This document shows positions 9,752 to 57,763 of a stretch of 64,000 nt of DNA, in pieces. Under the pieces are notes generated by a model. The model was given only the letters and a program-made list of their open reading frames with translations, ran no database searches and was not told the DNA's origin. The translations under genes were made by a program, and so were the position numbers. This DNA comes from Vicinamibacteria bacterium (lineage in GTDB: Bacteria > Acidobacteriota > Vicinamibacteria > Marinacidobacterales > Marinacidobacteraceae), in NCBI GenBank assembly GCA_963668695.2, contig CAXXLQ010000004.1:1248001-1312000 (forward strand). Reading direction: 5' to 3'. The first letter of the stretch is position 1. Each line of letters opens with the position of its first letter.

Positions 9752-9882
9752 GATGCCGGCCCCCACCGGGAGAACTGGCCAGAGGTCGGCGGTCCAAGCC
9801 GTCCCCGCGCTTCTTCGCGGTTTGCGATGCGCGATCTCGCTGCGCGTCGCGCAGCTGTGCCGGTGTGAACACCGGCGGTCCC
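9752..9882. repeat. Family-C REP-like copies; the first carries the 18-bp insertion at 9761-9778
   Basis: gatgccggc[ccccaccgggagaactgg]ccagaggtcggcggtcc and tgccggtgtgaacaccggcggtccc. Confidence 0.6.
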
Positions 9883-9956
9883 TTGCTAACTCGCTGTGCG
9901 GTGTGGGTCGCTAGGGCCGTCTGATCAGCGGTTGCCCGCGCGATATGCCTCCGGCC

Positions 9957-10074
9957 CGGCAAGTCCCGGCGCATCCGGACCAGGTCACGCCGCACGTCGT
10001 CCGGCAGCGGACGCCCAGGGTCGAACCACAATCTTGAGCGTCCTCGAACTCTTCAGAAACCTGTCGGCAGGCAT
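9957..10074 (-). pseudogene. Possible frameshifted remnant resembling a DUF1801 (YdhG-like) C-terminus
   Basis: KSSRTLKI in one frame and WFDPGRPLPDDVRRDLVRMR in another. The similarity is weak and recalled from memory. Confidence 0.2.
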
Positions 10075-10089
10075 CCCTTTCGGTGGCCG

Positions 10090-11277
10090 CTAACGTGGCA
10101 CCGGCTTGTCGAGTGAGTCCCATCCATAGGCTCGTTCGACCCGCGCCGTCAATTCGTCGAGAACGACACCCCCGCGATCACCATTCGTCATGATCGCCAC
10201 GCCGTATCCCTTCACCTTGTGCGCGAGCAGCGTTGCCCGGAAACCCCAGTTCGAGCCGCCATGTCCGAAGTACCAGCCCTGTCCGCGCTTGGAAACGCGG
10301 AACCCGACTCCATAGTCTCCGACACCCACCGGGTTGACCATCTGCTGGGCGCCCAGGGCGGACAACACCGTTCGGTCCCGCCCCTGGAGCGCCCGCTGAA
10401 CATCGAGGGCGAACTTCGCCAGGTCGGTGGGCGTGGTCCACAGGCCGGCGGCGGCCAACTCGGGATAGACGTGCCACTTCGCGTCCTTCGGTTGGCCGTT
10501 GCCGTCGTGGGCCCGGGCGGCGTTCGAGTCCAACTCCGCGCTCAGGGGCTGCTCGAATGTGCTGCGTGTCATTCCGATCGGCCCCAACACCCATTCGTTG
10601 AGCAACTCGGGGAAGGGTTTCTCGGTCGCGTCGGTCAGGGCGAGCTCCATCATCGTGACGCCGCCGCCGGAGTACTGGAACGCCGTCAGGGGCTCTCGTT
10701 CGAGAAGAACCGGACCAACATTGGACGGCCGCTCCCCGTTCAGGATCTGAACGGTCGTCGGTCGCGGGGCGTCGGGGTGGTAGCCCGGAAAACCGAACCC
10801 GTCCCCGGTTCCCGACGTGTGGCTTGCGAGGGTACGGGGAGTCACCGGCCGGTTGCGGGTGTGACGGGTCCCGGGCAGGCGCCAGGAGGTAAGGATTTCG
10901 TTGATGTCGTCGTCGAGTGAGAATCGCCCCTCCTCGCCCGCCCGAACGACGGCCATTGCCGCCACCGGTTTGCTGATGGACGCAGCCTGGAACAGCGTCT
11001 TGGTGTCGACGCGGGTACCGGCCGCGACATCGGCGATCCCGTAGCCTTTGGCCCAGTGGATCCGGAAGTCCTGGATCACGGCGACGCTGACCCCGGGCAC
11101 CCCGGCCAGACTCATGATCTCTTCGAGCGCGTAGGGATCCAGACCCTGGCGGTTCGGCTGCTGCGGACGCTCGATCGTCCGGATCATGGCGTCCACGCCA
11201 TCATCCTGAACGCCGGCCGCGGTCCATGCGCCGATGGGAAGGAACAGGACAAGCGAGAACAGCCAGCGGGTCTTCAT
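10090..11277 (-). CDS. Serine hydrolase, beta-lactamase family
   Basis: FQAASISK (SxxK), LASHTSG, FQYSGGG and FGHGGSN motifs; signal peptide from MKTRW. Confidence 0.9.
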   Translation of the reverse strand: MKTRWLFSLVLFLPIGAWTAAGVQDDGVDAMIRTIERPQQPNRQGLDPYALEEIMSLAGVPGVSVAVIQDFRIHWAKGYGIADVAAGTRVDTKTLFQAASISKPVAAMAVVRAGEEGRFSLDDDINEILTSWRLPGTRHTRNRPVTPRTLASHTSGTGDGFGFPGYHPDAPRPTTVQILNGERPSNVGPVLLEREPLTAFQYSGGGVTMMELALTDATEKPFPELLNEWVLGPIGMTRSTFEQPLSAELDSNAARAHDGNGQPKDAKWHVYPELAAAGLWTTPTDLAKFALDVQRALQGRDRTVLSALGAQQMVNPVGVGDYGVGFRVSKRGQGWYFGHGGSNWGFRATLLAHKVKGYGVAIMTNGDRGGVVLDELTARVERAYGWDSLDKPVPR

Positions 11278-11653
11278 CGAGCAACTCCGTGAGGTACGTT
11301 GAATTCTGAGGCAGGGATCTGTCATGGCGTCATCAAGGCAAGCCAGCCTGGGAGCGTCATGAAGCTTGGGTCACCGAGTCCGGCGCGCCGCTGCGAAGAG
11401 GCGGGTCGATCGGGAACAGAGTACCCGTGCGATCCGCGGCCTGGGTTGCGCGATTCGCCAGCCTGCGGGTCCCTACCAGGAGAACCGGGGCGATGCCGGC
11501 CTGGGGGCCGGCGGTCCTCTTTCGGCCGCCGCCGGCTCAGGGGACAGATCGCGTACATTCTCGATCGGACGAGCCCCGAGTTTCCGTGCGCCGCACCTAT
11601 CGCCGGACTGCCATTCCCCCCGAGCCGAACCGGGGCTACGGGAGTCGAAACTG

Positions 11654-12529
11654 ATGGTCGAGCGCTGTCCGAACTGCGGATCCGAACAGGTCGAGCACTA
11701 CTGTGCCTCCTGCGGGCAGCGCGCGGGCGACCTCCGGACGTCGATCGGCGAATTCCTTCGCGAAGCGGTGGACGAGGTCTTCTCGCTCGATTCCCGCGTC
11801 TGGCGGACGCTCATCGCGCTGTTCCGCCGTCCCGGCTTGTTGACCGCGGATTACTGGCGAGGGCGGCGCGCCCGGTTCGTGACGCCGCTGCGGCTCTATC
11901 TGCTGGTCAGCTTCGTGACCTTCCTGTTCCTCGTGATCGTCGCGCCGAACAGCGTCCTCGATGCGACCGGCACGAATCCCTGGGCGCCGCTGAGGATCGG
12001 TTCGGGTCCTCTGCCATTGGATCTACCGGCCGCGGAGGCGCCGGTCCCTGACGGTGCCGTTGAAGACGGCGATCCGGCGCCGACCGGCGAAGATAGCCCC
12101 GGGTGGTATTCGCAACATGTGCTACGGCCCGCGCTCGAGGCTCCGGAACGCGCACAGAGGCTCTTCCACCAACGGGTCCAGTGGACGGTGTTCGCGCAGG
12201 TTCCCCTCTTCGCCGTATGGCTCAGGCTGTTCTACCGGCGGCGCGAGCGCTTCTTCGTCCCGCACCTGGTGTTCGCCCTGCACTTCCACACGCTGGCGTT
12301 CGTGCTGCTGGTGGCCGGAACCGCCGGGACTCTGATCCTCGGAACCCAAATCCCTTCCGTGATTGCCTATCTTGCCGTCGCCGCGATGCTCTTCTGCTCG
12401 CTCCGGCGGGTCTATGCGGAGGGGGTGCTGAAGACCCTCGTCAAGCAGATCGCCCTGGTGTTCGTGCACGCATGGGCGATCTTGTTCGGTCTGATGGCGC
12501 TCCTGACCGTCACCGGACTCGCGGCGTAA
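11654..12529 (+). CDS. DUF3667 membrane protein
   Basis: CPNCG..YCASCGQ zinc-ribbon-like start, RPGLLTADY..GRRARFVTPLRLYL and HLVFALH motifs. Confidence 0.85.
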   Translation: MVERCPNCGSEQVEHYCASCGQRAGDLRTSIGEFLREAVDEVFSLDSRVWRTLIALFRRPGLLTADYWRGRRARFVTPLRLYLLVSFVTFLFLVIVAPNSVLDATGTNPWAPLRIGSGPLPLDLPAAEAPVPDGAVEDGDPAPTGEDSPGWYSQHVLRPALEAPERAQRLFHQRVQWTVFAQVPLFAVWLRLFYRRRERFFVPHLVFALHFHTLAFVLLVAGTAGTLILGTQIPSVIAYLAVAAMLFCSLRRVYAEGVLKTLVKQIALVFVHAWAILFGLMALLTVTGLAA

Positions 12530-12705
12530 TCGTCCGGATCAGACCGGCGGCGTCGCCGGCGAGCTGGCGATGCCGGCCGGCGATCGGCGCTCCCAGCGCT
12601 TCTTCCCGATTGGCCGGGCTCGGTTTCGCGGCCCTGCCGGGCCGCGGTGGGGACCCGAAGACCGGCGTTCTCCGGGGCCGCGCCATCCGTAGCTGCGTGC
12701 GACTC

Positions 12706-12735
12706 TTGACCCGGAACCCCCTCCGGTCGTAAATT
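12706..12735 (+). promoter_or_regulatory. Putative sigma-70 promoter of the amt-P-II-glnA operon
   Basis: TTGACC-18 nt-TAAATT about 75 nt upstream of amt; GGAGG RBS. Confidence 0.4.
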
Positions 12736-12809
12736 CCGCTCGCGAGACACGGGATACCCGGCCGGGTGGCGGAATTCCTTCCAATGATGCTCCCGAGGAG
12801 GAGGTCCTG

Positions 12810-14126
12810 ATGCTGAAGCGAATTCCGCTGATCGGGTTGGCCGCGCTCCTGCTGGCCGCACCGGCGTTTGCCCAGGACGCGGGGGGCGTGAGCACCGTGG
12901 GGCTCGACACCCTGTTCGTGTTGTTCTCGGCGTTCCTGGTGTTCCTCATGCAGGCCGGGTTCGGGATGCTCGAAGCGGGGTTCATCCGGGCCAAAAACAC
13001 CTGCAACATCCTGACGAAGAACTTCCTCGACTACTGCATGGCGTCGATCGGGTTCTTCGTTTTCGGCTACGCCATCATGTTTTCGGAGGGGAACCAGTTC
13101 TTCGGGACCAGCGGCTTTTTAATGGTGGGCGCCGAATCGGGTGCCGACGTATCGCTCTGGGCCTTCTGGTTGTTCCAGGCGGCGTTTTGCGGCGCTGCGG
13201 CCACCATCGTGGCCGGCGGAATGGCGGAACGGATGAGGTTCCCCGCCTATCTCGCCTACTCCTTCATCATTTCCTCGTTCATCTACCCGATCGTCGGCCA
13301 CTGGACCTGGGGTGGGGGTTGGCTCGCCCAGCTCAACTTCTTCGATTTCGCAGGCTCCACCGTCGTCCACCTGACCGGAGGCGCGACCGCGCTGGTCGGC
13401 GCCATGCTCCTGGGGCCGCGGCTGGGGCGTTTCAACGCCGACGGTAGCGCGAACGCCATTCCGGGCCATTCCGTACCGCTGGCATCCCTCGGCGTCTTCA
13501 TCCTCTGGTTCGGCTGGTTCGGCTTTAACCCCGGATCCGCCCTCGCGGTCGGTGACGGAGAGTTGATTTCCCTGATCGCGATCAATACCAACCTCGCGGC
13601 CGCGGCCGGAGCGGTAACCACGACCTTCCTTTCGTGGACTCTGTTCGGAAAGCCCGACCTCTTCTTCACGATGAACGGGGCGCTCGCCGGCCTCGTTTCG
13701 ATCACCGCCTCCTGCGCGATCGTGAGCCCCGCGTCCGCCATCTGGATCGGCGTGACGGGGGGGGTCGTGATCGTCCTCGGCGAGCGCCTCATGAACATCA
13801 TCAAGGTGGACGATCCCTGCGGCGCCTTCCCGGTGCACGGCCTCTGCGGCATCTGGGGAACGCTGACGGTCGGGCTCTGGGGACGCGAAGAGCTCGGCCT
13901 GGCCAACGAAGGATTGTTCTACGGCGGGGGATTCGAGCAGCTCGGCATCCAGGCGCTCGGCACCTTCGCGTCCGGCCTGTTCGTCTTCATCTCCATGGGG
14001 GCGGTGTTCATCGCCATCAGGGCGGTGCTCGGCCTTCGCGTGGATCGGATGGAGGAGATTCGTGGTCTCGACATGAACGAGCACGGGATGGAGTCCTACA
14101 CCGGCTTCCAGATTCTGGGTTCCTGA
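12810..14126 (+). CDS. amt: Ammonium transporter
   Basis: MQAGF, DFAGSTVVH, WFGWFGFN and DDP...VHG motifs (twin His present). Confidence 0.96.
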   Translation: MLKRIPLIGLAALLLAAPAFAQDAGGVSTVGLDTLFVLFSAFLVFLMQAGFGMLEAGFIRAKNTCNILTKNFLDYCMASIGFFVFGYAIMFSEGNQFFGTSGFLMVGAESGADVSLWAFWLFQAAFCGAAATIVAGGMAERMRFPAYLAYSFIISSFIYPIVGHWTWGGGWLAQLNFFDFAGSTVVHLTGGATALVGAMLLGPRLGRFNADGSANAIPGHSVPLASLGVFILWFGWFGFNPGSALAVGDGELISLIAINTNLAAAAGAVTTTFLSWTLFGKPDLFFTMNGALAGLVSITASCAIVSPASAIWIGVTGGVVIVLGERLMNIIKVDDPCGAFPVHGLCGIWGTLTVGLWGREELGLANEGLFYGGGFEQLGIQALGTFASGLFVFISMGAVFIAIRAVLGLRVDRMEEIRGLDMNEHGMESYTGFQILGS

Positions 14127-14154
14127 CGGGAACTTTTTTCAAGGCTGTTACGAC

Positions 14155-14496
14155 ATGAAGCTAGTCACCGCCCTGGTGCAACCCGAAGTGGTTCCCCTGG
14201 TTCAGGAGGAACTCTTCGGCGCACAGATCAACAAGTTCTCGATCACCGCGGGAGTCGGCCACGGAACCCAGAAGGGATACGAAGCCACCTTCCGCGGGGT
14301 GCAGACGCAGGTGAACATCCTGAAGCGCGTCCGCATTGACGTCGCGGTGAACGAGGACTTCGTGGAACGCGCGGTGCAGGCAATCCTGCGGGCAGCGCAG
14401 ACCGGGCAGCCGGGCGACGGGAAGATCTTCGTCACCGACCTCCACGACTGCATCCGGATTCGAACCGGCGAGCGTGGCTCGCAGGCCGTCGGCTGA
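14155..14496 (+). CDS. glnK: P-II nitrogen regulatory protein (GlnK-like by linkage to amt)
   Basis: GxGxQKG, TGQPGDGKIFV and IRIRTGERG motifs. Confidence 0.9.
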   Translation: MKLVTALVQPEVVPLVQEELFGAQINKFSITAGVGHGTQKGYEATFRGVQTQVNILKRVRIDVAVNEDFVERAVQAILRAAQTGQPGDGKIFVTDLHDCIRIRTGERGSQAVG

Positions 14497-14505
14497 CGTC
14501 CCCCC

Positions 14506-15921
14506 ATGTCTCTTCGCGACGTCCGGCGAGTGATCGCGGACCGGAAGATCCGGTTCGTGGACTTCCGGTTCACCGACCTCCTGGGCGGCTGGCGCCACAT
14601 TTCGTACGCCATCGAGGCCTTCGACGAGGACATGTTCGTCCATGGGATCGGCTTCGATGGTTCGTCGGTCCGCGGCTTTCAGGGCATCGCAAACAGCGAC
14701 ATGCTGCTTCGCCCCGATCCGGACAGCGGCTTCATCGATCCTTTCTACGAGGATCCGACGATGGTCTTCATCTGCAACGTCAAGGATCCGGTGGACCTCA
14801 GCCTGTACACACGCGATCCGCGGAACATCGTCGAGAAGGCCACGCGGTTCCTGGAAACGTCCTCGATCGCGGATACGTGTTTCGTGGGCCCGGAAGCGGA
14901 GTTCTACATCTTCGACGACGTCCGGTTCGATCAGACCGTGAACGAGGCCTTCTATCACGTGGACTCCGGCAGCGGCGCCTGGAACGTCGGACGCGAGGAG
15001 AACCCCAACCTCGGCCACAAGCCGGGCCTGAAGCAGGGCTATTTCCGGATGCCGCCCACGGACCCCTATCAGAATGTGCGCTCCGAGATGGTGACCAATC
15101 TGCGGGATTGCGGGGTGGACGCGGAACTGCACCACCAGGAGGTGGGCAGCGGCGGACAGTGCGAGATCGGGCTGAAATACCAGACGCTCAGCCAGATGTC
15201 GGACGCCATGATGAAGTTCAAGTACGTGGTGAAGAACACCGCTCACCGGCATGGAAGAACCGCGACCTTCATGCCGAAGCCGCTCTTCGGCGACAACGGT
15301 TCCGGAATGCACTGCCACATGAGCCTGTGGAGGAAGGGGCAGAACCTCTTCTACGATGCGGACGGGTACGCCGGTCTGAGCGAAATGGGGATCTACTTCA
15401 TCGGGGGCATCCTGAAACACGCGGGGTCGCTCCTGGCCTTCACCTGTCCCACGGCCAACTCCTACCGGCGCCTCGTTCCCGGGTTCGAAGCTCCCGTGAA
15501 GCTCGTCTACTCCCAGCGCAACCGCTCGGCCGCGATCCGGATCCCCATGTACTCGGCGAGTCCGGGTGCGAAGCGGATCGAGTTCCGCTGTCCCGACCCG
15601 AGCGCCAATCCGTACCTGGCGTTCTCCGCCATCATGATGGCCGGGCTCGACGGCATGATGAACAAGGTCGTGCCTCCCGATCCGGTGGACCGCGACCTCT
15701 ACGAGATGCCCGAAGAGGAGCAGCGTAAGATCGGCGACACGCCGCCGACACTCAAGGCCGCTCTCGACGCGCTCGAGGAGGATCACGACTACCTGTTGCG
15801 GGGGGATGTCTTCACGCCGGATGTCATCGAGACCTGGGTGCGTTACAAGCGGAGCCACGAGCTCGCCTACTTGGACCAGCGTCCGCACCCGGCGGAGTTC
15901 GCTCTCTACTATGACTGTTGA
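14506..15921 (+). CDS. glnA: Glutamine synthetase type I
   Basis: FDGSS, HHQEV, FMPKPLFGDNGSGMH, NRSAAIRIP and RIEFRCPDPSANPYL motifs; adenylylation motif DRDLYEM. Confidence 0.97.
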   Translation: MSLRDVRRVIADRKIRFVDFRFTDLLGGWRHISYAIEAFDEDMFVHGIGFDGSSVRGFQGIANSDMLLRPDPDSGFIDPFYEDPTMVFICNVKDPVDLSLYTRDPRNIVEKATRFLETSSIADTCFVGPEAEFYIFDDVRFDQTVNEAFYHVDSGSGAWNVGREENPNLGHKPGLKQGYFRMPPTDPYQNVRSEMVTNLRDCGVDAELHHQEVGSGGQCEIGLKYQTLSQMSDAMMKFKYVVKNTAHRHGRTATFMPKPLFGDNGSGMHCHMSLWRKGQNLFYDADGYAGLSEMGIYFIGGILKHAGSLLAFTCPTANSYRRLVPGFEAPVKLVYSQRNRSAAIRIPMYSASPGAKRIEFRCPDPSANPYLAFSAIMMAGLDGMMNKVVPPDPVDRDLYEMPEEEQRKIGDTPPTLKAALDALEEDHDYLLRGDVFTPDVIETWVRYKRSHELAYLDQRPHPAEFALYYDC

Positions 15922-15990
15922 TTCTCGCGAGGAATCCCGCCGCCGGAACTCGGATTTGAGCGCCCGGCCAGCGACCAGGGAGGCCCTTTC

Positions 15991-17289: not shown

Positions 17290-17646
17290 CAGCCTGTGGT
17301 GGAACCCAGGCGGCCCAGTTCTCCCGGTGGGGGCTCTGCCGGCGATCCATCCCGGCCAAACAGCCTGTAGAGGAACCCGCACGGCGTTCTGCCGGCGATC
17401 CATCCCGGCCAAACAGCCGGTGATGAAACCCACGCGGCGTTCTGCCGGCGATCCATCCCGGCTGAACCGCGTCGCTGCGCGCCGCTCATCGTTGCGTTTC
17501 GGTCGGAATACACCCGGGCCAGTTCTCCCGGTGGGGGCTCCTCCCTCACGCGCCTTGTCAGCCGGGCCCCCACCGGGAGAACTGGCCCCACCGGGAGAAC
17601 TGGGCCTCGCCGGCCTCGGCACTCACCCGGGTTCCACTACAGGCTG
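17290..17646. mobile_element. MITE-like element, family A
   Basis: Terminal inverted repeats CAGCCTGTGGTGGAA ... TTCCACTACAGGCTG. Starts immediately after the flotillin stop codon. Confidence 0.75.
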
Positions 17647-20438: not shown

Positions 20439-20608
20439 TGCGGGGAATGCGGACGGGGAGCGAAATCGGCGGCCTAGATGGAAGGTGCTGCCGGCCTGGG
20501 ACCGCTGCGCGGTCGGCTGGCGTGCTCCAGGCGTCGCGAACGGCCCATTACGGCACCGGGGTCTCCCGCAGGACGACTCGATCAGGAGTCGGGAGGCGTT
20601 GATTCTAG

Positions 20609-21162
20609 TAGCCGGTGGCGGAACCCGCGTGAGCGCGCCGAGGCCGGTGAGGCGCCCGGCTGACAAGGCGCGTGAGGGAGGAATACCGGGTGTATTCCGA
20701 CTGAAACGCAACGATGAGCGGCGCGCAGCGACGCGGTGAACAGCCGGTGGTGGAACCCACGTGAGCGCCGAGGTCGGCCAGTTCTCCCGGTGGGGGCGAG
20801 GCCCAGTTCTCCCGGTGGGGGTCCGGCTGACAAGGCGGGTGAGGGAGGAGCCCCCACCGGGAGAACTGGCCCGGGTGTATTCCGACCGAAACGCAACGAT
20901 GGGCGGCGCGAAGCGACGCGCAGTTCTCCCGGTGGGGGTCCGGCTGACAAGGCGCGTGAGGGAGGAGCCCCCACCGGGAGAACTGGCCCGGGTGTATTCC
21001 GACTGAAACGCAACGATGAGCGGCGCGCAGCGACGCGGTTCAGCCGGGATGGATCGCCGGCCGAACGCCGCGTGGGTTTCATCACCGGTTGTTTGGCCGG
21101 GATGGATCGCCGGCCGAGCCCCCACCGGGAGAACTGGGCCGCGCGGGTTTCACCACCGGCTG
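20609..21162. mobile_element. MITE-like element, family A (expanded, reverse orientation)
   Basis: CTAG-TAGCCGGTGG ... CACCACCGGCTG, with internally duplicated modules. Confidence 0.75.
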
Positions 21163-23434: not shown

Positions 23435-23522
23435 GCCGGAGTGGCGGAATTGGTAGACGCACGGGACTCAAAATCCCGCGGTCCCTGGGGCCATGAGGGT
23501 TCGAGTCCCTCCTCCGGCACCA
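23435..23522 (+). tRNA. tRNA-Leu (CAA)
   Basis: GCCGGAG...CTCCGGC-ACCA acceptor stem, anticodon loop CTCAAAA, long variable arm, GGTTCGAG T-loop. Confidence 0.96.
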
Positions 23523-23553
23523 GCCCCCTGCTCGCGCTGGGCTCCGTGACCCG

Positions 23554-24769: not shown

Positions 24770-24843
24770 TAGCGGGGGGCGGACTTGAACCGCCGACCTA
24801 AGGGTTATGAGTCCTTCGCTCTGACCGGCTGAGCTACCCCGCC
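24770..24843 (-). tRNA. tRNA with CAT anticodon (probably elongator Met); CCA not fully encoded
   Basis: GGCGGGGTAGCTCAG...CTCATAA...GGTTCAAGTCC...CCCCGCTA. Confidence 0.92.
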
Positions 24844-25634: not shown

Positions 25635-26466
25635 CAGCCTGTGGTGAAACCCGCGCGGCCCAGTTCTCCCGGTGGGGGCTCGGCCGGCGATCCATCCCGG
25701 CCAAACAACCGGTAGTGAAACCCACGCGGCCCAGTTCTCCCGGTGGGGGCTCGGCCGGCGATCCATCCCGGCCAAACAGCCGGTGATGAAACCCACGCGG
25801 CCCAGTTCTCCCGGTGGGGGCTCGGCCGGCGATCCATCCCGGCCAAACCGCGTCGCTGCGCGCCGCTCATCGTTGCTGTTTCGGTCGGAATACGCCCGGC
25901 CCAGTTCTCCCGGTGGGGGCTCCTCCCTCACGCGCCTTGTCAGCCGGGCCCCCACCGGGAGGACTGGCCCCACCGGGAGAACTGGGCCTCGCCCCCACCG
26001 GGAGAACTGGCCAACCTCGGCGCTCACGTGGGTTCCACCACCGGCTGTTCACCGCGTCGCTGCGCGCCGCTCAGCGTTGCGTTTCGGTCGGAATACACCC
26101 GGGCCAGTTCTCCCGGTGGGGGCTCCTCCCTCACGCGCCTTGTCAGCCGGGCCCCCACCGGGAGGACTGGCCCCACCGGGAGAACTGGGCCTCGCCCCCA
26201 CCGGGAGAACTGGCCAACCTCGGCGCTCACGTGGGTTCCACCACCGGCTGTTCACCACGTCGTTTCCACCACCGGCTGCGCGCCGCTCAGCGTTGCGTTT
26301 CGGTCGGAATACACCCGGGCCAGTTCTCCCGGTGGGGGCTCCTCCCTCACGCGCCTTGTCAGCCGGGCCCCCACCGGGAGGACTGGCCCCACCGGGAGAA
26401 CTGGGCCTCGCCCCCACCGGGAGAACTGGCCGGCCTCGGCGCTCACCCGGGTTCCACCACCGGCTG
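25635..26466. mobile_element. Family-A MITE expanded into tandem modules (3 x 71 bp + about 3 x 200 bp)
   Basis: Left modules start at 25635, 25706 and 25777. Right modules each end in CACCACCGGCTG. Followed by TTAA. Confidence 0.8.
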
Positions 26467-26540
26467 TTAACCGAAGCGCTTCCTTGTCCCCCGGGGTGTT
26501 CTCCGGGAGACCGGCTGATTGGGAGGCTGCGCGCAACCGC

Positions 26541-26807
26541 TCAGGATGCGGCCTGTTCCTCTTCCTCTTCCTCTTCTTCGAGCGCGACCCGTTCATCGTC
26601 TGTCAGGACGTCGGCCATCTTCCAGACGGGTTCCTGGGGACCCGCAACCAAACCCTCAATATCCGGATCTCCATCCGTGCGCACCGGAATTTCGCGCTCT
26701 TTCTCGATGGACCGCTCCCGGCGCTGCACAGCCTTGGCCCGCTGACGCGCTACGCGCTCCTTTTCCTTCCGGCGCTTGAGGAAGGTCTGTCGGGAGCGGT
26801 TGGCCAT
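26541..26807 (-). CDS. Small hypothetical protein (basic N-terminus, acidic C-terminus)
   Basis: MANRSRQTFLKRRKEKER...DPDIEGLVAGPQ. Confidence 0.65.
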   Translation of the reverse strand: MANRSRQTFLKRRKEKERVARQRAKAVQRRERSIEKEREIPVRTDGDPDIEGLVAGPQEPVWKMADVLTDDERVALEEEEEEEEQAAS

Positions 26808-26824
26808 GGGGTCCGGAATGCTAG

Positions 26825-26980
26825 CAGCGCGTGGGCACAGTGAGGTGAGCGCCGAGTCTGGCCAGTCCTCCCGGTGGGGGCGAGGCCCAGTTCTCCCGGT
26901 GGGGGTCCGGCTGACGAGGCGCGCGAGGGAGGAGCCCCCACCGGGAGAGAACCTGGTCGCGCGACTTTGTCCACAGGCTG
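26825..26980. mobile_element. Family-A MITE, partial or degenerate
   Basis: CTAG-CAGCGCGTGG ... GTCCACAGGCTG; contains 18-mer variants. Confidence 0.6.
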
Positions 26981-36942: not shown

Positions 36943-37151
36943 CAGCCGGTGGTGGAACCCGCGTGAGCGCCGAGTCCGGCCAGTTCTCCCGGTGGGGGCG
37001 AGGCCCAGTTCTCCCGGGGTCCGGCTGACAAGGGTGTATTTCGACCGAAACGCAACGATGAGCGGCGCGCAGCGACGCGGTTCAGCCGGGATGCATCGCC
37101 GGGCGAACCCCCACCGGGAGAACTGGGCCGCGTGGGTTTCGCCGCAGGCTG
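36943..37151. mobile_element. Family-A MITE with perfect CTAG target duplication (left copy contains the hslU stop)
   Basis: CTAG(36939)-CAGCCGGTGG...GCAGGCTG-CTAG(37152). Confidence 0.8.
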
Positions 37152-39836: not shown

Positions 39837-40002
39837 AGTGACGCGGCGTTCGACCGGCGATGCATCCCGGCTGAACCGCGTCGCTTCGCGTCGCTCATCG
39901 TTGCGCTTCGGTCGGAATACAACCAGGTATTCCTCCCTCGCGCGCCTTGTCAGCCGGGCGCCTCGCCGGTCTCGGCGCTCACGCCACTCCATCCACGGAC
40001 TG
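39823..40002. mobile_element. Family-A MITE, minimal form (180 bp, no 18-mer)
   Basis: CAGTCCGTG...CACGGACTG termini; internal GAATAC-N6-GTATTC palindrome. Confidence 0.75.
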
Positions 40003-47722: not shown

Positions 47723-47742
47723 GGTCACGTGGATCAATTCGT

Positions 47743-50811: not shown

Positions 50812-50900
50812 CGGGCGACTCTTTCTCCGTAGGCGCGACGCCCGCCTCCGCGGTGCTGTCGAGGAGACCCTTGCGCTCCGGGACCAGCGGTCCGGATTAA

Positions 50901-51318
50901 CAGCCGGTGGTGGAACCCACGCGGCGTTCGGCCGGCGATCCATCCCGGCCAAACAGCCGGTGGTGGAACCCGCGCGGCGTTCGGCCAGCGATCCATCCCG
51001 GCTGAACCGCGTCGCTGCGCGCCGCTCATCGTTGCGTTTCGGTCGAAATACACTCGGTATTCCTCCCTCACGCGCCTTGTCAGCCGGACCCCCACCGGGA
51101 GAACTGGGCCTCGCCGGCCTCGGCGCTCACTCGGATTCCACCACCGGCTATTTCACCGCGTCGCTGCGCGCCGCTCATCGTTGCGTTTCGGTCGAAATAC
51201 ACCCGGGCCAGTTCTCCCGGTGGGGGCTCCTCCCTCACGCGCCTTGTCAGCCGGGCGCCTCGCCCCCACCGGGAGAACTGGCCAGCCTCGGCGCTCACCC
51301 GGGTTCCACCACAGGCTG
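50901..51318. mobile_element. Family-A MITE (2 left + 2 right modules)
   Basis: TTAA-CAGCCGGTGG...CCACAGGCTG-TAA. Confidence 0.8.
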
Positions 51319-51397
51319 TAAGACGCACGCTTTCGGCGGGGCTGTGCCAGACTGTCCAGGTGTGTCGGTTCGGACGCGGCCCGGAGGCCCGCAAAGC

Positions 51398-52114
51398 GTG
51401 AAGTACTTACCGTACGCTGGTCGGTGGGCCGCTCGTCTCGCAATGGTCGCCGCTGCCTTGGTGTTTTGCCCCGCCCCGGCGGCTTCCGGAAGCGGCGGCT
51501 CGGGGGCGCTGCGGCAAACCCAGCCAGCTTCGGAGCCCGCAGGGATCGATCGGGTGCTCGCGGTTGTCAACGGCGAACCGATTACGTTCTCTGAAGTCAT
51601 CGAGGCGGTCGCGCTCATGCCGAGAGTCAGACCGCCGCCCGCTCTTGAAGAGGCTCTGGGTCGCCTGATCGATGCACGGCTCATGGAACATGAGGCACGG
51701 CGGTATCCGCAAGAGCCGCCTTCGGAAGAGGAGAGCGAGGCGACGCTGCGGGCCCTCATGGACCGGTTTGCGACCCCGGAGGACTATCGGGCCACACTGC
51801 GGCGCCTCGGCATTGCCGAGGACTATCTACGGAAACGGATCCAGAGGGAGCTGATCGTGGACCGATATGTGGACCGCCGTTTCCGGCCTCTGGTCCAGGT
51901 CGCCCAGCGCGAAGTCGAGGAGTACTACCGGACCGTGCTGCTTCCGGATCTGGATCCCGGTTCACCGGCAACTTTGAGTGAAGTGGAGAGCCTGATTCGG
52001 AATATACTTGGACAGCGCGATCTGAACCGGCGGATTTCCGCTTGGGTGGACGAGTTGAAGTCCAGCGCCAGCATCGTGCGATTGCCGCTCTCCGAGCCGC
52101 CTCCGGCGGGCTGA
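51398..52114 (+). CDS. SurA N-terminal-domain-like periplasmic protein
   Basis: IDRVLAVVNGEPITFSEV, LIDARLM and WVDELK motifs. Confidence 0.75.
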   Translation: MKYLPYAGRWAARLAMVAAALVFCPAPAASGSGGSGALRQTQPASEPAGIDRVLAVVNGEPITFSEVIEAVALMPRVRPPPALEEALGRLIDARLMEHEARRYPQEPPSEEESEATLRALMDRFATPEDYRATLRRLGIAEDYLRKRIQRELIVDRYVDRRFRPLVQVAQREVEEYYRTVLLPDLDPGSPATLSEVESLIRNILGQRDLNRRISAWVDELKSSASIVRLPLSEPPPAG

Positions 52115-52303
52115 ATCGTTCCGGCCCCGCCGGAGCGATTCGAAGGTTCCATCCAGCGGGAAGGGAACGCTTGGTTCGGATGCGGCGTTATTAAGGTCGT
52201 TCCGCTTGGAGACGGAACGGTTAGATTGGCGAGGATGGCACGCTGCGTGCTTACCTTGTCTAGACACAAAGTAGGCCAAATCAGGAGTTGCCAGGAGGGC
52301 GTC

Positions 52304-53338
52304 ATGGACCCTACGACTACAGATTACGAAACCATCGAGTTCGTCGACGAGGCTTTCGATCTCGAGGAAGAAGAGGAAGAGTCCACTGAGGATGAGTTGG
52401 ATGAGGCTCGAGAACTCGGTCTCGCTCCGGATACCCACCAGACCGGCGATCTGGACTCGATGGGGCTCTATCTGCGGGACACGCACCGGCACCGGCTGCT
52501 CACCAAGAATGACGAGCAGCGCTACAGCCGCGCCATGCAGCAAGCCCTTCGCGACATTGAGGGCACCGAGGATCCGGCGAATACGGACGTCAATGCCTTC
52601 TACAAGAACCGGGAAAAGATGATCGAGGGGAACCTGCGCCTCGTCATCTCCATTGCCAAGCAGTCCCGAGGCAAGGGGCTCCCGCTGGGCGATCTCATCC
52701 AGGAAGGCAACATCGGACTCATGCAGGCGGTTCGCAAGTTCGAGCCGGAGCGCAATCTGAAGTTCTCGACCTATGCGACGTGGTGGATTCGGCAGGCGAT
52801 CTGGCGTGCACTTTCCCAAAAGTCCCGCACGATCAAGGTTCCTATCAACAAGCTGGATCTTCACCGCAAGGCTTCCAAGGTTCGGGCGGAACTCGAGCAG
52901 CGGTACCGGAACGATCCTGCGCGACGCGGGAAGCGGCAGTTCCCGACGACCGACGACGTCGCTCGCGAGATAGGAGTGCCCGCGGAGAGGCTTAAGGATG
53001 CGCTCCGTTCGGTGCCGCAGATTGACTCCCTCGATGCGCCGCTGGTTCCTGATGGGACGCCGCGGATCGCGCTGACTCCCGATCCGGATCAGTTGAATCC
53101 GATCGAAGGTGTCACCGATGCCGAACAGCGCCGCCACGTCCGGGATGCCATTTCGGACCTCCCCGATCGGTTGCAGCACGTGCTCAAGCGCCGCTTCGGG
53201 ATTCTGGGTGGCGGTGAGGCGAACCTCGAGGAGATCGGGCGTGAGCTTCACCTGACCCGGGAACGGGTGCGGCAGCTCGAGACCGAAGCGCTTCTCCGGC
53301 TCCGCCAGGATCCGCGCCTCCGCGTTTCCGCGGGCTAA
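52304..53338 (+). CDS. RpoD/RpoS-like sigma-70 factor (lacks region 1.1; group 2-like)
   Basis: [35 protein letters not shown] and TRERVRQLE motifs; AGGAGG RBS. Confidence 0.92.
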
Positions 53339-53536
53339 CAGCCTGTGGTGGAATCCGGGTGAGCGCCGAGGCCGGCCAGTTCTCCCGGTGGGGGCGAGGC
53401 GCCCGGCTGACAAGGCGCGTGAGGGAGGAATACCGAGTGTATTTCGACCGAAACGCAACGCAGAACGGAGCGCAGCGGAGTGGCTCAGCCGGGATGGATC
53501 GCCGGCCGAACGCCGCGTAGGTTTCATCACAGGCTG
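53339..53536. mobile_element. Family-A MITE at the sigma-factor stop codon
   Basis: CTAA-CAGCCTGTGG...TCACAGGCTG-TTAG. Confidence 0.78.
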
Positions 53537-53888
53537 TTAGCCCTCCCGCTCGCCATCCGGCCCCCCCTCCGGAGGGGGGCCGGCAACGCGAGCCGGCGCA
53601 TCGCCTACCTCCCTAGAGGCCAATGGTGTATCGCTACGCACCGCAGGCAACTCATGGCAGCGAACTCTGTTCGCTGTCTGCCTGCTCGGGGGAAAGTGTG
53701 GGAGCCCTCCCCCTTTCACGATCAGTAACGACCAATCGGAACTCGCCGCACTTCGGAAGCCCGGCGCGAAGCGCCGGGCGGTTCTCGGACGGGGCCCGAA
53801 CACCACCGAAGACGACAGGCGCTAACTCGACGCCACCGGTGGCCCCGTCCGGGGAGCGCTCGACGGAATACGCGGGTACGATGGCGCG

Positions 53889-55499
53889 ATGCGCCTTTTT
53901 CTGCCAACCCCTTCCGTCTTTCGGGGCGGGGTGCTTGTCGCCCTCGTCCTGCTGTCTGTCACCCGCTCCGACGCCTGGCAAGCGCGGGAAATAGACCTCA
54001 CTTCGGCCACGATCGCCGAGATCAACGAGGCAGTGGATGCCGGCGCACTGACCGCCGAGCGGCTCGTTGAGTTGTGCCTTGCCCGGATCGCCGCCTACGA
54101 CGATCAGGGGCCACGCATCAACGCCGTCATTTCGCTGAATCCCAACGCCCGGGAGCGAGCCCGGGAGTTGGACGCCGAGCGGGAGCGGTCGGGGCGCCGT
54201 TCGCCCCTCCACGGAATCCCGGTCGTGCTCAAGGACAATTTCGACACCGCGGATATCCCGACCACCGCGGGATCTTTCCTGCTTCAGGATTCGCTTCCCC
54301 CGGACGATGCCTTCGTGGTGCGGAAACTGAGGGAGGCCGGCGCCATTGTGCTGGCCAAGGTGAATCTCAGCGAATTCGCTTCCGGCGGCGCCATGAGTTC
54401 GCTCGGCGGGATCACCCGGAACCCGCACGATCCGGCCCGCACCCCCTCCGGATCGTCGGGTGGGACCGGTGCGGCCGTTGCTGCCGGCTACGGCTTCGTC
54501 GGACTGGGCTCGGACACCGGGGGATCCATCCGCGGGCCTTCCACCGCGAACGGACTTGCCGGGCTCAAACCGACGCTTGGGCTCCTCAGTCGTGACGGCA
54601 TCGTGCCGCTTGCCCTTTCCTTCGACACCGGCGGCCCGATGGCGCGTAGCGTCTACGACGTCGCGGTATCGCTGGGAACCATGGTCGGGGTGGATGAGGC
54701 TGACGCGGCGACGTCGAGAAGCGCCGGGAAGTTCCATGACGACTACACCCAGTTCCTGGATTCCGACGCCCTCGCGGGGGCTCGCCTCGGCGTAGCCCGC
54801 GACTTCATGGGGGTTGATCGCGAGGTGGACTGGACCATCGAAGCGGGCCTCGACGCGATGCGCGACGCTGGCGCCGAAGTCGTCGATGTTCGATTCCCGG
54901 AATGGCTCCTGGAGGTCGAGAGCGACTTCTACACGACCGTCCGCTGGGCGGAGTTTCGCAAGCAGATCGCGGAGTACCTGGAAGATCTCGGCGAGGGCTA
55001 CCCCAAGACGCTGGACGAACTCGTGGACCGTTCGATGGCTTTGCCTTCCCATCGGGACGGCCTTCGTCCGAATCCGGGACGCTGGAGCCTTTTCCTGCGC
55101 GAAAACGCAAGCGGGGACGTCACGGACTACGCGCACATCGCCGTACGAGAACACGCCCTGCCGCTGGTCCGTTCGCTTGTCGAGGGCCTGATGGACCAGG
55201 AGGAACTGGACGCCATCGTGTATCCGACTTCGCCGACACGACCGGCGCTGATTGATCGCCCCGCGGATCTCTATGGACCGTCTCCCATGCGCCTTGCGAA
55301 CATGAGCGGGTTCCCGGACTTGATCGTTCCTGCCGGGTTCACCGGCGGCGGCTTGCCAGTAGGCATTTCTTTCCTCGGCCGGGCGTTCAGCGAGCCGCGA
55401 CTCCTCGCGATCGGTTACGCGTTCGAGCAGCGAGTGAAGGCGCACCGGGTGCCCGAGCACACTCCGCCGCTGCCCGGTGAACGGATCAGCTATCGCTGA
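53889..55499 (+). CDS. Secreted amidase-signature family enzyme
   Basis: LHGIPVVLKD, GSSGG and GSDTGGSIRGP motifs. Confidence 0.92.
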   Translation: MRLFLPTPSVFRGGVLVALVLLSVTRSDAWQAREIDLTSATIAEINEAVDAGALTAERLVELCLARIAAYDDQGPRINAVISLNPNARERARELDAERERSGRRSPLHGIPVVLKDNFDTADIPTTAGSFLLQDSLPPDDAFVVRKLREAGAIVLAKVNLSEFASGGAMSSLGGITRNPHDPARTPSGSSGGTGAAVAAGYGFVGLGSDTGGSIRGPSTANGLAGLKPTLGLLSRDGIVPLALSFDTGGPMARSVYDVAVSLGTMVGVDEADAATSRSAGKFHDDYTQFLDSDALAGARLGVARDFMGVDREVDWTIEAGLDAMRDAGAEVVDVRFPEWLLEVESDFYTTVRWAEFRKQIAEYLEDLGEGYPKTLDELVDRSMALPSHRDGLRPNPGRWSLFLRENASGDVTDYAHIAVREHALPLVRSLVEGLMDQEELDAIVYPTSPTRPALIDRPADLYGPSPMRLANMSGFPDLIVPAGFTGGGLPVGISFLGRAFSEPRLLAIGYAFEQRVKAHRVPEHTPPLPGERISYR

Positions 55500-55510
55500 T
55501 CCGTAGGCCG

Positions 55511-56461
55511 CTAGTCCGGAATCCGCAGTACCCCTTCGGCGACCTCGACCGCCTGGCCGCCGACGCGCACGATGGAGGGTTGGCCGTTCTCGCGCTCGAC
55601 CTCCACATGGATCGAACTGGGGCGTCCGATCTCGTAGCCCTGTTCGATCACCAGACGGACCGGATCCCGACCGCCGTCCTTCGCCAATCCATGCCGGACG
55701 AGCCAAGCGCCCAGCGCCCCCGCGGCACTCCCGGTCGCCGGGTCCTCGGCCACTCCGAGTCCCGGAGCGAACATCCGGGCGTGAGCGGCGTTCTCCTCGT
55801 CGACGCACTGGGTGGAGAAGACCATCATGCAGTCTGAGCCGATTTCCTCCCTGTTGAGCAAGGCCTGCGCCGCCATCGCATCGAACTCCAGCTTTTCGAT
55901 GCTGCGAAGCGACCGTACCGGCACCATCAACTGTGGGAGCGCCGTCGAAACGACCTGTGCCGGCCTGTCGTCGGGCAGGACTTCGTCGGCGCCGATTCCG
56001 AGGCAGGCGGCGAGGGAGTTTCGGTCCGCGAACTCTGCGAAGAAACGCGGAGGCGCCTGCGTCATTACGACCTGTTGCACGGCACCGCCCGAGACTCGGA
56101 TATCCACTGGGAGCACCCCGGCGCCGCATTCCTGATGGATTCGATGGACACCGGTTCCGAGGTTCCTGAGCTTCTCACCAAGCCCCAGTTCCCCGCGCCC
56201 GGCGAGCACAAAGAACGTTCCCACGACGGGGTGCCCCGCCAGTGGAAGTTCGGTGTTGGGGGTGAAGATCCGAAGGCGGCAGAGCGCCTGCACATCGGTC
56301 GGCGGGAGTACGAACGCGGTTTCCGACAGGTTCATTTCTGCCGCGATCCGCTGCATGTCTTCGCCGGAGAGCCCCTCGGCGTCGGTGACGATGGCCAGCG
56401 GATTCCCCGCGAACGCGTGGTCGGTGAAAACGTCCGCCTGAAGGAACCGGTATTCGCGCAC
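55511..56461 (-). CDS. PhzF-family isomerase
   Basis: DVFT..GNPL, EMNLSETAF, ELPLAGHP, EDPATGSA and EQGYEIGRPS motifs. Confidence 0.92.
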   Translation of the reverse strand: MREYRFLQADVFTDHAFAGNPLAIVTDAEGLSGEDMQRIAAEMNLSETAFVLPPTDVQALCRLRIFTPNTELPLAGHPVVGTFFVLAGRGELGLGEKLRNLGTGVHRIHQECGAGVLPVDIRVSGGAVQQVVMTQAPPRFFAEFADRNSLAACLGIGADEVLPDDRPAQVVSTALPQLMVPVRSLRSIEKLEFDAMAAQALLNREEIGSDCMMVFSTQCVDEENAAHARMFAPGLGVAEDPATGSAAGALGAWLVRHGLAKDGGRDPVRLVIEQGYEIGRPSSIHVEVERENGQPSIVRVGGQAVEVAEGVLRIPD

Positions 56462-56474
56462 GAACGCCCCGAGT

Positions 56475-56960
56475 CTATCCGTTAGGAGGGAAGAGGCGAC
56501 CGCTTCGGTTGCGGTTGGGCGTTTGCTGTCCCTGCCGGATGGCTTCTTCCGAAGCGAGTTCATGGGCCCGTTCATTCCCCGGGTGCCCGGAATGACCCCG
56601 AACCCACTCGAACCGAACTGCGGGCCGCTTCGCGCGCGCGTCTGCCATCCGTCGCCACAGGTCAGCGTTCTTCACGGGGCGCCGGCCAGCCGTCTGCCAG
56701 CCGCGACGTATCCACGACGGAAGCCATTCGGTAGCGCCCTTGACCACGTACTGGCTGTCACAGATCACGGTCGCGGATATTCCGTCCGGAACGGCTTCCA
56801 CGGCCCGGATCGCGGCGGTGAGTTCCATCCGGTTGTTCGTGGTCTGCGGTTCGCCGCCGGAGAGAACGCGTTCCTCCCCAGCGCCCGAAAGGATCACGGC
56901 CGCCCAGCCCCCCGGCCCGGGGTTCCCGAGGCAGGAGCCGTCGCACGCGATACGCAGCAT
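56475..56960 (-). CDS. rnhA: Ribonuclease HI
   Basis: DGSCLGNPGPGG, TTNNRMEL, DSQYV and WVRGHSG motifs. Confidence 0.95.
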   Translation of the reverse strand: MLRIACDGSCLGNPGPGGWAAVILSGAGEERVLSGGEPQTTNNRMELTAAIRAVEAVPDGISATVICDSQYVVKGATEWLPSWIRRGWQTAGRRPVKNADLWRRMADARAKRPAVRFEWVRGHSGHPGNERAHELASEEAIRQGQQTPNRNRSGRLFPPNG

Positions 56961-56989
56961 CGACCGGTATCCTACGTTCCAAGTCGCCA

Positions 56990-57547
56990 GTGCCCTGGAT
57001 CCGCATGATTTCCCCCGACGCCCCCGAGGGCCGTACGGGGCGGCTCGGAACTCTCTACCGGCGACACCGGCGTCCTGATGGCCTCGTTGACAACATCCTT
57101 GGGGTATCCAGCTTGAACCCCGAGGCGCTGGAGCACCATCTGTCCCTGTACGAGCACCTGATGCGTGGCGAATCGGGGCTCGAGCTGGCGGAGCGGGAAC
57201 TGATTGCGGTCGCCGTTTCCGTGGTCAACGAGTGCCACTATTGAATCGAGCATCACCGGAGGGGTCTTCTCCGGCTGACGAGAGATCCGGAACTGGTGGA
57301 CGCCTTGCGCCGCGATCCCGCAGGATGTTCCCTTCCGCCGCGCCGCCGTGCTCTCGTTGACTACGCGATCAAGCTGGCGCGGACTCCGGCGAGTCTTGCC
57401 GAGGAAGACCTCGCGCCGCTCCGGAACGCCGGGCTTTCCGACCGCGACATCCACGACGCGTGTGCGGTGGCCTCCTACTACTGCTTCGTGAACCGCATGG
57501 CCACCGGCCTCGGTGTGGAGTTGGAAGAGGCGGGATCCGGGCCTTAG
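56990..57547 (+). CDS. AhpD-like / peroxidase-related protein, predicted selenoprotein (CxxU; UGA at 57242-57244)
   Basis: Two same-frame ORFs join through TGA to give VSVVNECHY-U-IEHH ... FVNRMATGLGV (185 aa). Confidence 0.85.
57256..57274 (+). promoter_or_regulatory. Putative bacterial SECIS element
   Basis: CCGGAG-GGGTCTT-CTCCGG hairpin starting 11 nt after the UGA, with a GGUCU apical loop. Confidence 0.75.
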
Positions 57548-57763
57548 CAGCCTGTGGTGGAACCCGGGTGAGCGCCGAGAGCGGGGAGGCGCCCGGCTGA
57601 CAAGGCGCGTGAGGGAGGAGCCCCCACCGGGAGAACTGGCCCGAGTGTATTTCGACCGAAACGCAACGCAGAGCGCCGCAAAGCGCCAGTTCTCCCGGTG
57701 GGGGGGCGGTTCAGGCGGGATGCATCGCCGCTCGAACGCCGCCTGGGTATTCACCACAGGCTG
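57548..57763. mobile_element. Family-A MITE with TTAG target duplication at the AhpD-like stop
   Basis: TTAG-CAGCCTGTGG...CCACAGGCTG-TTAG. Confidence 0.8.

Follow-up and report, generated by a model that had tools for sequence, protein, structure and literature searches.

A dispersed 18-nucleotide repeat in a Vicinamibacteria genome: host sites, an insertion in an efflux gene and possible routes of spread

How can one fixed oligomer of 18 nucleotides come to lie at many non-homologous places inside other repeats? The question is raised by a stretch of 64,000 nt from a Vicinamibacteria bacterium of the family Marinacidobacteraceae (contig CAXXLQ010000004.1, positions 1,248,001 to 1,312,000), hereafter called the window, in which the word CCCCACCGGGAGAACTGG (the 18-mer) is scattered over both strands. 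The genome holding the window (G000) comprises 4.095 Mb in 4 contigs, with 67% GC. An earlier note on this DNA had held that tandem duplication does not place one oligomer at unrelated sites and had suggested a templated insertion process. According to the analysis described here, the 18-mer is a non-autonomous dispersed repeat of very small size, stands as a separate unit rather than being merely a module of its hosts, and behaves like one of the smallest known mobile DNA units. We consider it probable that it is a discrete inserting micro-repeat, the copies of which have been multiplied mainly by host amplification, slippage and conversion.

Copies of the 18-mer and the insertion in an efflux gene

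Within the window, 31 exact copies were found on both strands, while none of 100 dinucleotide-preserving shuffles gave any. With up to three mismatches, 37 sites were detected where 0.20 are expected, namely the 31 exact ones, five with one mismatch (20920, 25950, 26153, 26369, 26862) and one with three (11471), which agrees with the about 35 copies counted by eye before. A genome-wide count, which the earlier note had proposed as a check, revealed 1,288 exact copies in G000 (640 on the plus and 648 on the minus strand), grouped in 490 clusters of 1 to 12 copies each. One mismatch is present in 278 further copies (the same A13G variant in 156 of them), two mismatches in 65 and three in 48. If all copies are aligned on the 18-mer, conserved flanks are restricted to G-C before and S-C-C after it (G-C-[18]-S-C-C), and the information content is back to background within 3 nt. 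Since flank conservation collapses beyond these letters, the 18-mer is a sharply bounded unit. Across contexts, the base pair preceding it is nearly always GC and it is often followed by CGG or CCGG.

The 18-mer and its flanks (26 nt) did not form a hairpin or palindrome when their fold (-3.6 kcal/mol, z = -0.06) was compared with 200 shuffles, 89 of which fold as well. Inverted pairs of 18-mers within the miniature inverted-repeat transposable element (MITE) described below form perfect 21-22-bp stems (z about -5). For neighbours not more than 200 nt apart, the reverse-complemented word followed by the word is threefold as frequent as the reverse order (241 vs 84). Arrays have periods of 18, 25 and 71, and in arrays of period 18, units after the first make up 146 of 1,287 sites, so that only a subset has the form of a slippage-type tandem repeat. 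The 18-mer shows no strand bias with replication direction along the chromosome, which rules out a polar motif of the Chi or KOPS kind. At gathering thresholds, Rfam detected no RNA family at the repeats of the window; the only hits were a tmRNA and two tRNA genes (6199-6574, 23435-23519, 24770-24843), which are ordinary and lie away from the repeats.

The strongest evidence for insertion comes from a single gene. To judge coding context, 521 of the 1,288 sites, which have any open frame longer than 300 nt on both sides, served as the base. Among them, the sole coding-like locus (GC content at third codon positions 0.93) lies outside the window and was found twice owing to haplotype duplicates in the assembly. 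It falls within a single-copy gene for a 1,035-residue transporter of the AcrB family (ACR_tran, E = 3e-237). Hence, the earlier statement that no copy occurs in core coding sequences is correct for the window but not for the whole genome. In G000 and its closest relative, the sister species G001, the efflux gene reads GAGCCCGGC[18]CGGGATG, where [18], like [19] in other junction strings, gives the length of the inserted unit. The insertion is in frame and adds six codons (PHRENW). Comparisons with relatives covered the 64-kb window, one 16-kb stretch and this one gene. In an alignment of the efflux orthologs from the family comparison set of 28 genomes, the 18 nt are absent in 26, for example in G008, which has GAGCCCGCGCGGGATG. 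The flanks revealed no repeat homology on either side of the insertion and no target duplication, with 1 nt of ambiguity. This copy is a de novo insertion that took place in the common ancestor of G000 and G001. As an in-frame insertion of 18 nt is present in a unique, conserved gene, a templated insertion process exists. The view that a fixed oligomer is inserted from a template was thereby upheld, as was the objection that tandem duplication cannot account for non-homologous sites.

Of 24 other family genomes, 20 contain the exact 18-mer, which is missing from all 16 genomes examined from two sister families. At up to two mismatches, the counts per genome range from 0 to 1,631, with the highest values in G000 (1,631), G004 (844), G001 (797), G008 (745) and G018 (388). 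Genera g3, g6 and g7 contain 0-3 copies, whereas the minimum in genus g1 is 15. Dialects exist, G023 having CCCTACCGGGAGAACCGG and G019 the A13G form. The 18-mer of genera g4, g5 and g6 occurs at positions and in host repeats unseen in G000, for instance in arrays of TTGCCGGGC[18]CGCCGGACTCCAGTC and in the loop of the B hairpin. A scan of prokaryotes with one genome per species gave, among the matches listed, nothing but single matches outside this group. Carriage by phages was rejected, the one match in viral contigs lying in an unrelated low-GC context and being taken as chance. That the 18-mer stems from an adapter, from faulty polishing or from the assembly deserves practically no credence, because the 18-mer is present in the 20 other family genomes and, among the matches listed, in many independently deposited assemblies, as well as in the orthologous gene of two species. 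Moreover, short-read contigs from runs of several studies cover the unique DNA of the window between the repeats, where they stop.

Host repeats and junctions

In G000, the 18-mer occupies at least 12 distinct positions across several host repeats, which is a stronger result than the many independent sites claimed before. Sites A, C, D, E and F belong to a MITE-like element that directly adjoins stop codons with its ends, and site B to a 71-nt hairpin unit, which is often tandem. Further hosts are repetitive extragenic palindrome (REP)-type hairpins such as GATGCCGGYCTGAAGRCCGGCGYTCC, with the 18-mer at three positions and on both strands, and two other small hairpin families. The 1,287 classified sites fall into 323 B, 277 A, 154 D, 142 C and 64 E sites, the 146 tandem units, 33 and 24 sites at two REP positions, smaller classes of 13, 12 and 8, and 91 others. 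The third REP position, of which the window has an example at 9761, is counted among these others.

Over the whole genome, only two states occur at site A (GGA-ATA-CCGGG vs GGA-G[19]C-CCGGG, about 231 to 232 copies) and at site B (CGA-AC-GCC vs CGA-GC[18]-GCC, 166 to 197 copies). Two states and a constant junction point to one founding event for each of these sites. Filled and empty alleles thus coexist as previously described, but several of them are not clean insertions, as ATA is replaced by G+19+C at site A and AC by GC+18 at site B. The 345 MITE cores include every one of the 12 combinations that the states of A, D and C (C with 0, 1 or 2 copies) allow, and their association is near free assortment (odds ratio 2.0 for A-C and 1.3 for C-D). 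Fixed junctions together with near-free assortment fit conversion between repeat copies plus slippage better than repeated fresh insertion; short-patch conversion would explain why each site has two states and a fixed junction and assorts almost freely. Clean filled/empty pairs in G000 comprise 143 filled sites, of which 87 are longer by 19 nt, 52 by 18 nt and 4 by other lengths. Four contexts unrelated to one another, namely MITE site D, the MITE head and two REP positions, display GGCC or GCC microhomology in the +19 class. The GGCC repeat at these events is only microhomology. The 18-mer itself is no MITE, an element of 50-500 nt with terminal inverted repeats and a target-site duplication, as it has 18-19 nt, no inverted ends and no duplication at the efflux-gene event.

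The fixed junctions at sites A and B, the free assortment of states and the very fast turnover of host arrays between species would also be expected if the 18-mer were merely an ancestral module of one mosaic repeat family, comparable to the bacterial interspersed mosaic elements (BIMEs) or Neisseria intergenic mosaic elements (NIMEs), and were spread by module recombination only. This explanation is contradicted by the unique efflux-gene insertion, which lacks repeat homology on either side. The 18-mer is, in addition, present in REP hairpins unrelated to the MITE (three positions, both strands) and located elsewhere in other genera, which makes a mosaic module very improbable.

Within the window, a REP-type hairpin of the host family 'REP-2' is found in both states. 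The empty hairpin GATGCCGGCCTGAAGGCCGGCGGTCC (490-525, plus strand) folds as an 8-bp hairpin. At 9761-9778 (plus), the 18-mer stands within GATGCCGGC^CCAGAGGTCGGCG and, according to the fold computation, abolishes the hairpin of its host. A diverged copy, CCCTACCAGGAGAACCGG, with three mismatches and near the common dialect of genus g4, is located at 11471-11488 (plus). The next group begins with an 18-mer of the site B type in a 71-nt hairpin unit (17315-17332, minus) and continues with the 18-mer at MITE site A (17519-17536, minus), two tandem copies of period 18 at MITE site C (17568-17603, plus) and an empty MITE site D (GCCTCGCCGGCCTCGG; 17603-17620, plus).

A MITE unit in which all sites are empty lies at 20612-20737 (plus), with its site A (GGAGGAATACCGGG) at 20670-20690. 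Beside it, a MITE contains 18-mers at site D (20778-20795, minus) and, with a GGAC junction, at site C (20803-20820, minus); both are missing from the orthologous MITE of G001. The site A copy at 20852-20869 (plus) forms a 21-bp stem with the copy at 20803-20820. They are followed by a one-mismatch copy at the edge of a partial MITE unit (20920-20937, minus), another site A copy (20969-20986, plus), an empty site B (CCGAACGCCGCGTGGG; 21056-21072, plus) and a filled one (21120-21137, plus).

The next region starts with three tandem 71-nt hairpin units, each with a site B 18-mer (25660, 25731 and 25802; 25660-25819, minus), and a site A copy with a variant right flank (25901-25918, minus). An arrangement consisting of the A13G variant, an 18-mer at site C (tandem), GCCTCGC and an 18-mer at site D extends from 25950 to 26010 and recurs at 26153-26213 and 26369-26429 (all plus), with site A copies at 26104-26121 and 26320-26337 (both minus). 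At 26862-26904 (minus), where the MITE is on the other strand, the A13G variant occupies site D and the 18-mer site C.

Farther downstream, a site D copy (36980-36997, minus) is followed at about 37004-37020 by a truncated 18-mer (CCCAGTTCTCCCGGGGTCCGG) and a MITE core lacking the stretch up to GGTGTATT, which is an internal deletion of the host element. The site B copy at 37109-37126 (plus) has the rare clean junction CGAAC^GCCGCG. A MITE core with empty sites A, C and D lies at 39930-39985 (plus). Site C is filled at 51090-51107 (plus, GGAC junction) in a unit with an empty site A. The site A copy at 51208-51225 (minus) forms a 22-bp stem with the site D copy at 51264-51281 (plus). An 18-mer fills MITE site D at 53376-53393 (minus), with sites C and A empty, and the last copies are found at site A (57622-57639, plus) and site E (AACCGCCC^CGCTTTGC; 57686-57703, minus).

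The filled and empty pairs pointed out before were all recovered from these sites: CGAAC^GCCGCGTGGG at 21062 vs +18 at 37109; CAGCCGGGC^GCCTCG at 39951 vs one copy at 51090 or two tandem copies at 17568/17586; GGAGGAATACCGGG at 20676 vs net +18 at 20852; CCTCGCCGGCCTCGG at 17605 vs +19 at 26412; and the hairpin pair 498 (empty) vs 9761 (filled). The copy at 57686 is real as well.

Some observations concern the host MITE. Its terminus (CAGCCGGTGGTGGAAC; 20740-20760 and all MITE ends) has CCGGTGG in common with the reverse complement of the 18-mer. Ends of Tc1/IS630 elements begin with CAGT, and the CAGT start of the MITE ends resembles them. An ORF fragment of IS630-like appearance near C4:2,886.4 kb is a candidate partner of the MITE. 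At position 20640 of the window (TTGATTCTAGT|AGCC...), G004 and G008 (L117, L118) are without the MITE array. Judging by this empty site, the array may have a short AGT repeat at its two ends and no TA duplication. At 53335-53545, compared with G001 (L142-L145, reverse-complemented), MITE-like elements are oppositely oriented at one point behind a stop codon and differ in their 18-mer states, which may reflect either independent insertion into one hot spot or an inversion.

Turnover, constraint and the search for a mover

About 290 kb are present twice in the assembly (C1, C3 and C4:9-148 kb vs C4:3,775-3,914 kb) with 97.6-99.7% identity. The two ends of C4 overlap one another, and the duplicate haplotypes match the 'contamination' figure of 9.3%. 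They served as a strain comparison, the pairs being C1 vs C4:310-421 kb, C3 vs C4:3,505-3,538 kb, and head vs tail of C4. The alignment comprises 265 kb with 0.67% mismatches. Out of 34 groups of indels of at least 6 nt, seven change whole 18-mer units (sites A, C and tandem arrays). The 81 copies common to both haplotypes revealed no substitution in 1,499 positions, compared to 41 differences in 6,701 positions within 60 nt on either side, which is also repeat DNA (Fisher p = 3.8e-4). In DNA farther from the 18-mers, 0.67% of the positions differ. A few of the compared copies carry 1-nt deletions. Because of the difference in substitutions, it can be stated that the 18-mer is preserved more strictly than its hosts, through either selection for recognition or homogenisation. 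A weak hint of a further strain difference is a contig of run X9 (another strain), which covers 26444-26933 with 18 gap letters. Between species, presence and absence at an orthologous place, which the earlier note had suggested examining, was seen not only in the efflux gene but also in one MITE, in which G000 carries the two copies at sites C and D that are missing in G001. Host arrays change fast between species, given intergenic sites being filled in one and empty in the next.

The lack of substitutions in the 81 common copies is compatible with a recognition site selected by the host, e.g. one bound by a repair or nucleoid protein or used in DNA uptake, which was recruited into repeats and scattered with them. 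The dialects at the genus level, the equal copy numbers on both strands and the frequent inverted pairs forming 21-22-bp stems would also suit such a site. However, members of the family have between 0 and about 1,600 copies, and those of one genus between 15 and 1,631; this wide range is unlike an essential site. Only one locus among the 1,288 copies is in a coding-like frame, and new copies come as insertions of 18-19 nt and not by point changes. We consider a selected recognition site quite unlikely.

Neither an enzyme nor a donor locus for the 18-mer was found. A reverse transcriptase, proposed before as one possible mover, was rejected, as the domain search detected no RVT_1 in G000, and matches were obtained in only four of the 28 family genomes, three of them over the cut-off. 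The second candidate of the earlier note, a REP-associated tyrosine transposase (RAYT), did not stand for G000 either. No Y1_Tnp domain is present in this genome, tblastn with seven Y1 proteins of relatives gave no match there, and the synteny of G000 breaks exactly at both Y1 loci of G001. Fifteen of the 28 family genomes have Y1 genes, one or two each. All of these genomes belong to the 21 carriers, defined as genomes with at least 10 copies at up to two mismatches, and none to the seven non-carriers. As the genomes are kin, this association is weak evidence. Many copies but no Y1 match were found in G000, G004, G018 and G019. In the relatives, the single-copy, RAYT-like Y1 genes adjoin REP-type hairpins (GATGCCGGYCTGAAGRCCGGCGYTCC and variants) in a REPtron layout. 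Six loci were read, L154 and L155 (G001), L156 (G008), L158 (G010), L160 (G009) and L159 (G014); at five of them the hairpins stand on both sides in opposite orientation, L159 having been read on the downstream side only. A scan of seven Y1 loci for the core motif of the 18-mer gave none in five and one each in two, about 1.3 kb from the gene at L155 and about 60 nt downstream at L159. G000 keeps the REP-type hairpins but is without a Y1 gene. Because the Y1 genes are flanked by REP hairpins and not by the word, the 18-mer is a guest of the REPs belonging to a RAYT system and not the REP itself.

It is nevertheless conceivable that the HUH/Y1 (RAYT-type) transposase of this clade, an enzyme working on REP hairpins, mobilises the 18-mer in trans, as single-stranded DNA cut out and placed behind a GGC-type target with no target duplication. 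Y1_Tnp was found in 15 of 21 carriers and in none of the seven non-carriers, a distribution inflated by kinship, and the hairpin family flanking the Y1 genes of the relatives is the one that hosts the 18-mer at three positions in G000. Members of the IS200/IS605 family insert without target duplication, as was observed at the efflux gene. This contrasts with the four genomes named above, including the two richest in copies (G000 with 1,631 and G004 with 844), in which no Y1 gene was matched, and with the negative tblastn result and broken synteny in G000. Moreover, the 18-mer does not flank Y1 genes (core motif at two of seven loci only), does not itself fold into a hairpin (-3.6 kcal/mol, z = -0.06) and has no strand bias with replication direction. 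Mobilisation by Y1 in trans is, on these grounds, unlikely.

A larger element ended by the 18-mer was also rejected. The 21 inverted pairs of 18-mers spaced 600-3,500 nt apart span ordinary, differing ORFs, recurrent half-sites of the 18-mer do not exist in G000, and no full-length insertion sequence (IS) bounded by the 18-mer or its halves was found there. An excision footprint is thus not supported in G000. CRISPR-like arrays were considered, too. The multi-copy arrays found are satellites with a period of 32 nt, unrelated to the 18-mer. They are 1.3-3.2 kb long, lie on C4 at about 574-576, 976-979, 1,574-1,575, 2,554-2,556 and 2,887-2,888.6 kb, and are built of GCGACATGTTC plus variable letters (64 nt in case of two alternating units). 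A tandem array of 22 kb with a period of about 350 nt (C4:2,803,874-2,826,790; units 85-94% identical) is probably a giant repetitive gene.

Dedicated mobility might not be needed at all. Microhomology-mediated template switching in the course of replication or repair could lead a nascent strand from a GGCC/GGC site onto one of more than 1,000 identical GGCC-flanked units and back, and slippage between these short repeats could remove units. The 3-4 nt of GGCC/GCC microhomology at +19-nt events in four unrelated contexts, the variable junctions with 2-3 nt replaced, the tandem arrays of period 18 and 25, and the losses or gains of whole units between haplotypes of a genome without RAYT and reverse transcriptase can all be understood in this way. 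Yet homology of 3-4 nt is everywhere at 67% GC, while only the 18-mer spreads. Template switching leaves unexplained that the 18-mer has no substitutions as opposed to 41 in equally repeated flanks, and that the word and its dialects persist across genera in differing hosts. We regard template switching as the sole cause as doubtful.

If the 18-mer is a discrete inserting micro-repeat, it would enter as a unit of 18-19 nt, almost always behind GC and often at GGC^CGG-like sites, and fresh insertions would be rare. Most of the roughly 1,300 copies would be secondary, having ridden on the amplification of host repeats, arisen by replication slippage, from which arrays of period 18 and 25 would result, or been transferred by short-patch conversion between paralogous host repeats. 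The insertion step would need a template and most likely a sequence-specific factor, which would also keep the 18-mer intact. Judging by the gene content, this factor is not a reverse transcriptase and, in G000, not a RAYT. More speculative is the assumption that the 18-mer itself is mobile, the smallest such unit so far, and that it is moved in trans by a sequence-specific enzyme, either an as yet unrecognised nuclease/ligase or a RAYT with a substrate other than a hairpin. Placing the word after GC at GGC^CGG-like sites, such an activity would cause no target duplication; it could extend genes by six codons and would preserve the word across genera. We put this forward only as a tentative possibility.

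Several points weigh against a discrete inserting unit. Just one insertion into unique DNA, that in the efflux gene, is documented, and the other context changes are inferred from present-day copies without polarisation by an outgroup. The junctions vary, with gains of 18 or 19 nt or an exchange of 2-3 nt for 20-21 nt; this variety is unlike the clean signature of a transposase, and template switching or repair fits it equally well. The absence of substitutions could reflect conversion by many identical copies instead of selection, and the differences between haplotypes could be losses, due to slippage between GGCC repeats, or strain exchange and not gains. Short-read contigs break at the repeats, so that they yield no count of filled and empty sites at the read level. 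The failure to find an enzyme or a donor locus belongs here as well.

Known short repeats and significance

The small dispersed repeats (SDRs) of filamentous cyanobacteria appear to be the closest described kind. In the work of Elhai et al. (2008, Genome Res 18:1484), SDRs are said to have 21-27 nt and to be found as insertions relative to orthologous DNA; reportedly, they are often nested in repeats or hairpins and patchy among relatives. To our knowledge, no enzyme or mechanism is known for them. The 18-mer is similar in being very short and dispersed in near-identical copies with sharp edges (1,288 exact, 278 with one mismatch), in being present as an insertion compared to orthologous DNA (efflux gene; MITE of G000 and G001), in its nesting in repeats and hairpins and in its patchy occurrence (0 to 1,631 copies). 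By contrast, it belongs to another phylum, is unrelated in sequence, is shorter (18-19 nt) and does not fold into a hairpin by itself; furthermore, it was seen in frame in a gene and shows clean +19-nt events with GGCC microhomology. SDRs are described as 'some 20 bp long' and elements that 'might be mobile' in PMC2884548, which, like PMC3116915, cites Elhai 2008. The existence of these repeats makes the claim that no element of this kind has been described too strong. A literature search, supplementary files aside, revealed no paper on such repeats in the bacteria studied here.

With REPs and the REPIN-RAYT system, the 18-mer shares the high copy number and the lineage-specific, intergenic occurrence, and the clade possesses a RAYT-like gene with REP hairpins. 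However, whereas a REP is an imperfect palindrome of about 20-40 nt, the 18-mer is not palindromic, does not flank Y1 genes and is most abundant in genomes without Y1. Insertion of REPs into small target palindromes is on record, and REPs are described as having a conserved unpaired GTAG or CGTC tag at one end (PMC3733652). Neither tetranucleotide is present in the 18-mer and its conserved flanks G-C-[18]-S-C-C. Membership in the REP/RAYT group thus fails on three features, the hairpin, the tag and the flanking of a transposase gene. The BIMEs of Escherichia coli and the NIMEs (dRS3) of Neisseria resemble it in one respect, as a short motif is interleaved with other modules in combinations varying from copy to copy; mosaics of BIMEs and palindromic units and mosaic regions with dRS3 are treated in PMC2884548 and PMC3733652, respectively. 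Their motifs are palindromic or inverted-repeat boxes, whereas the 18-mer is asymmetric and inserts outside mosaics too.

Two further kinds of repeats share single traits with the 18-mer. DNA uptake sequences and uptake signal sequences are short words with hundreds to thousands of copies on both strands, genus dialects and inverted pairs. In all these traits they resemble the 18-mer, but the latter is nearly absent from coding DNA, varies 100-fold in copy number within a genus and is inserted as a block. Rickettsia palindromic elements (RPEs) are palindromes of roughly 100-150 nt, which can sit in frame in protein genes. The ability of a small repeat to be placed in frame within a gene is common to both, while the 18-mer has 18 nt, is not palindromic and has only one of its 1,288 copies in a gene. 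RPEs are named among the CGTC-type repeats in PMC3733652.

Ever since SDRs were described in cyanobacteria, the spread of repeats about 20 nt long has awaited an explanation. The 18-mer offers a test case for it, with more than 1,000 identical copies, a dated insertion in a unique gene, presence and absence at the strain level in one population, a defined target preference, and close relatives (several of them single-contig) with and without RAYT and with 0 to about 1,600 copies. In practical terms, perfect 21-22-bp stems arise from the 18-mer, short-read assemblies break at it and proteins can gain codons from it.

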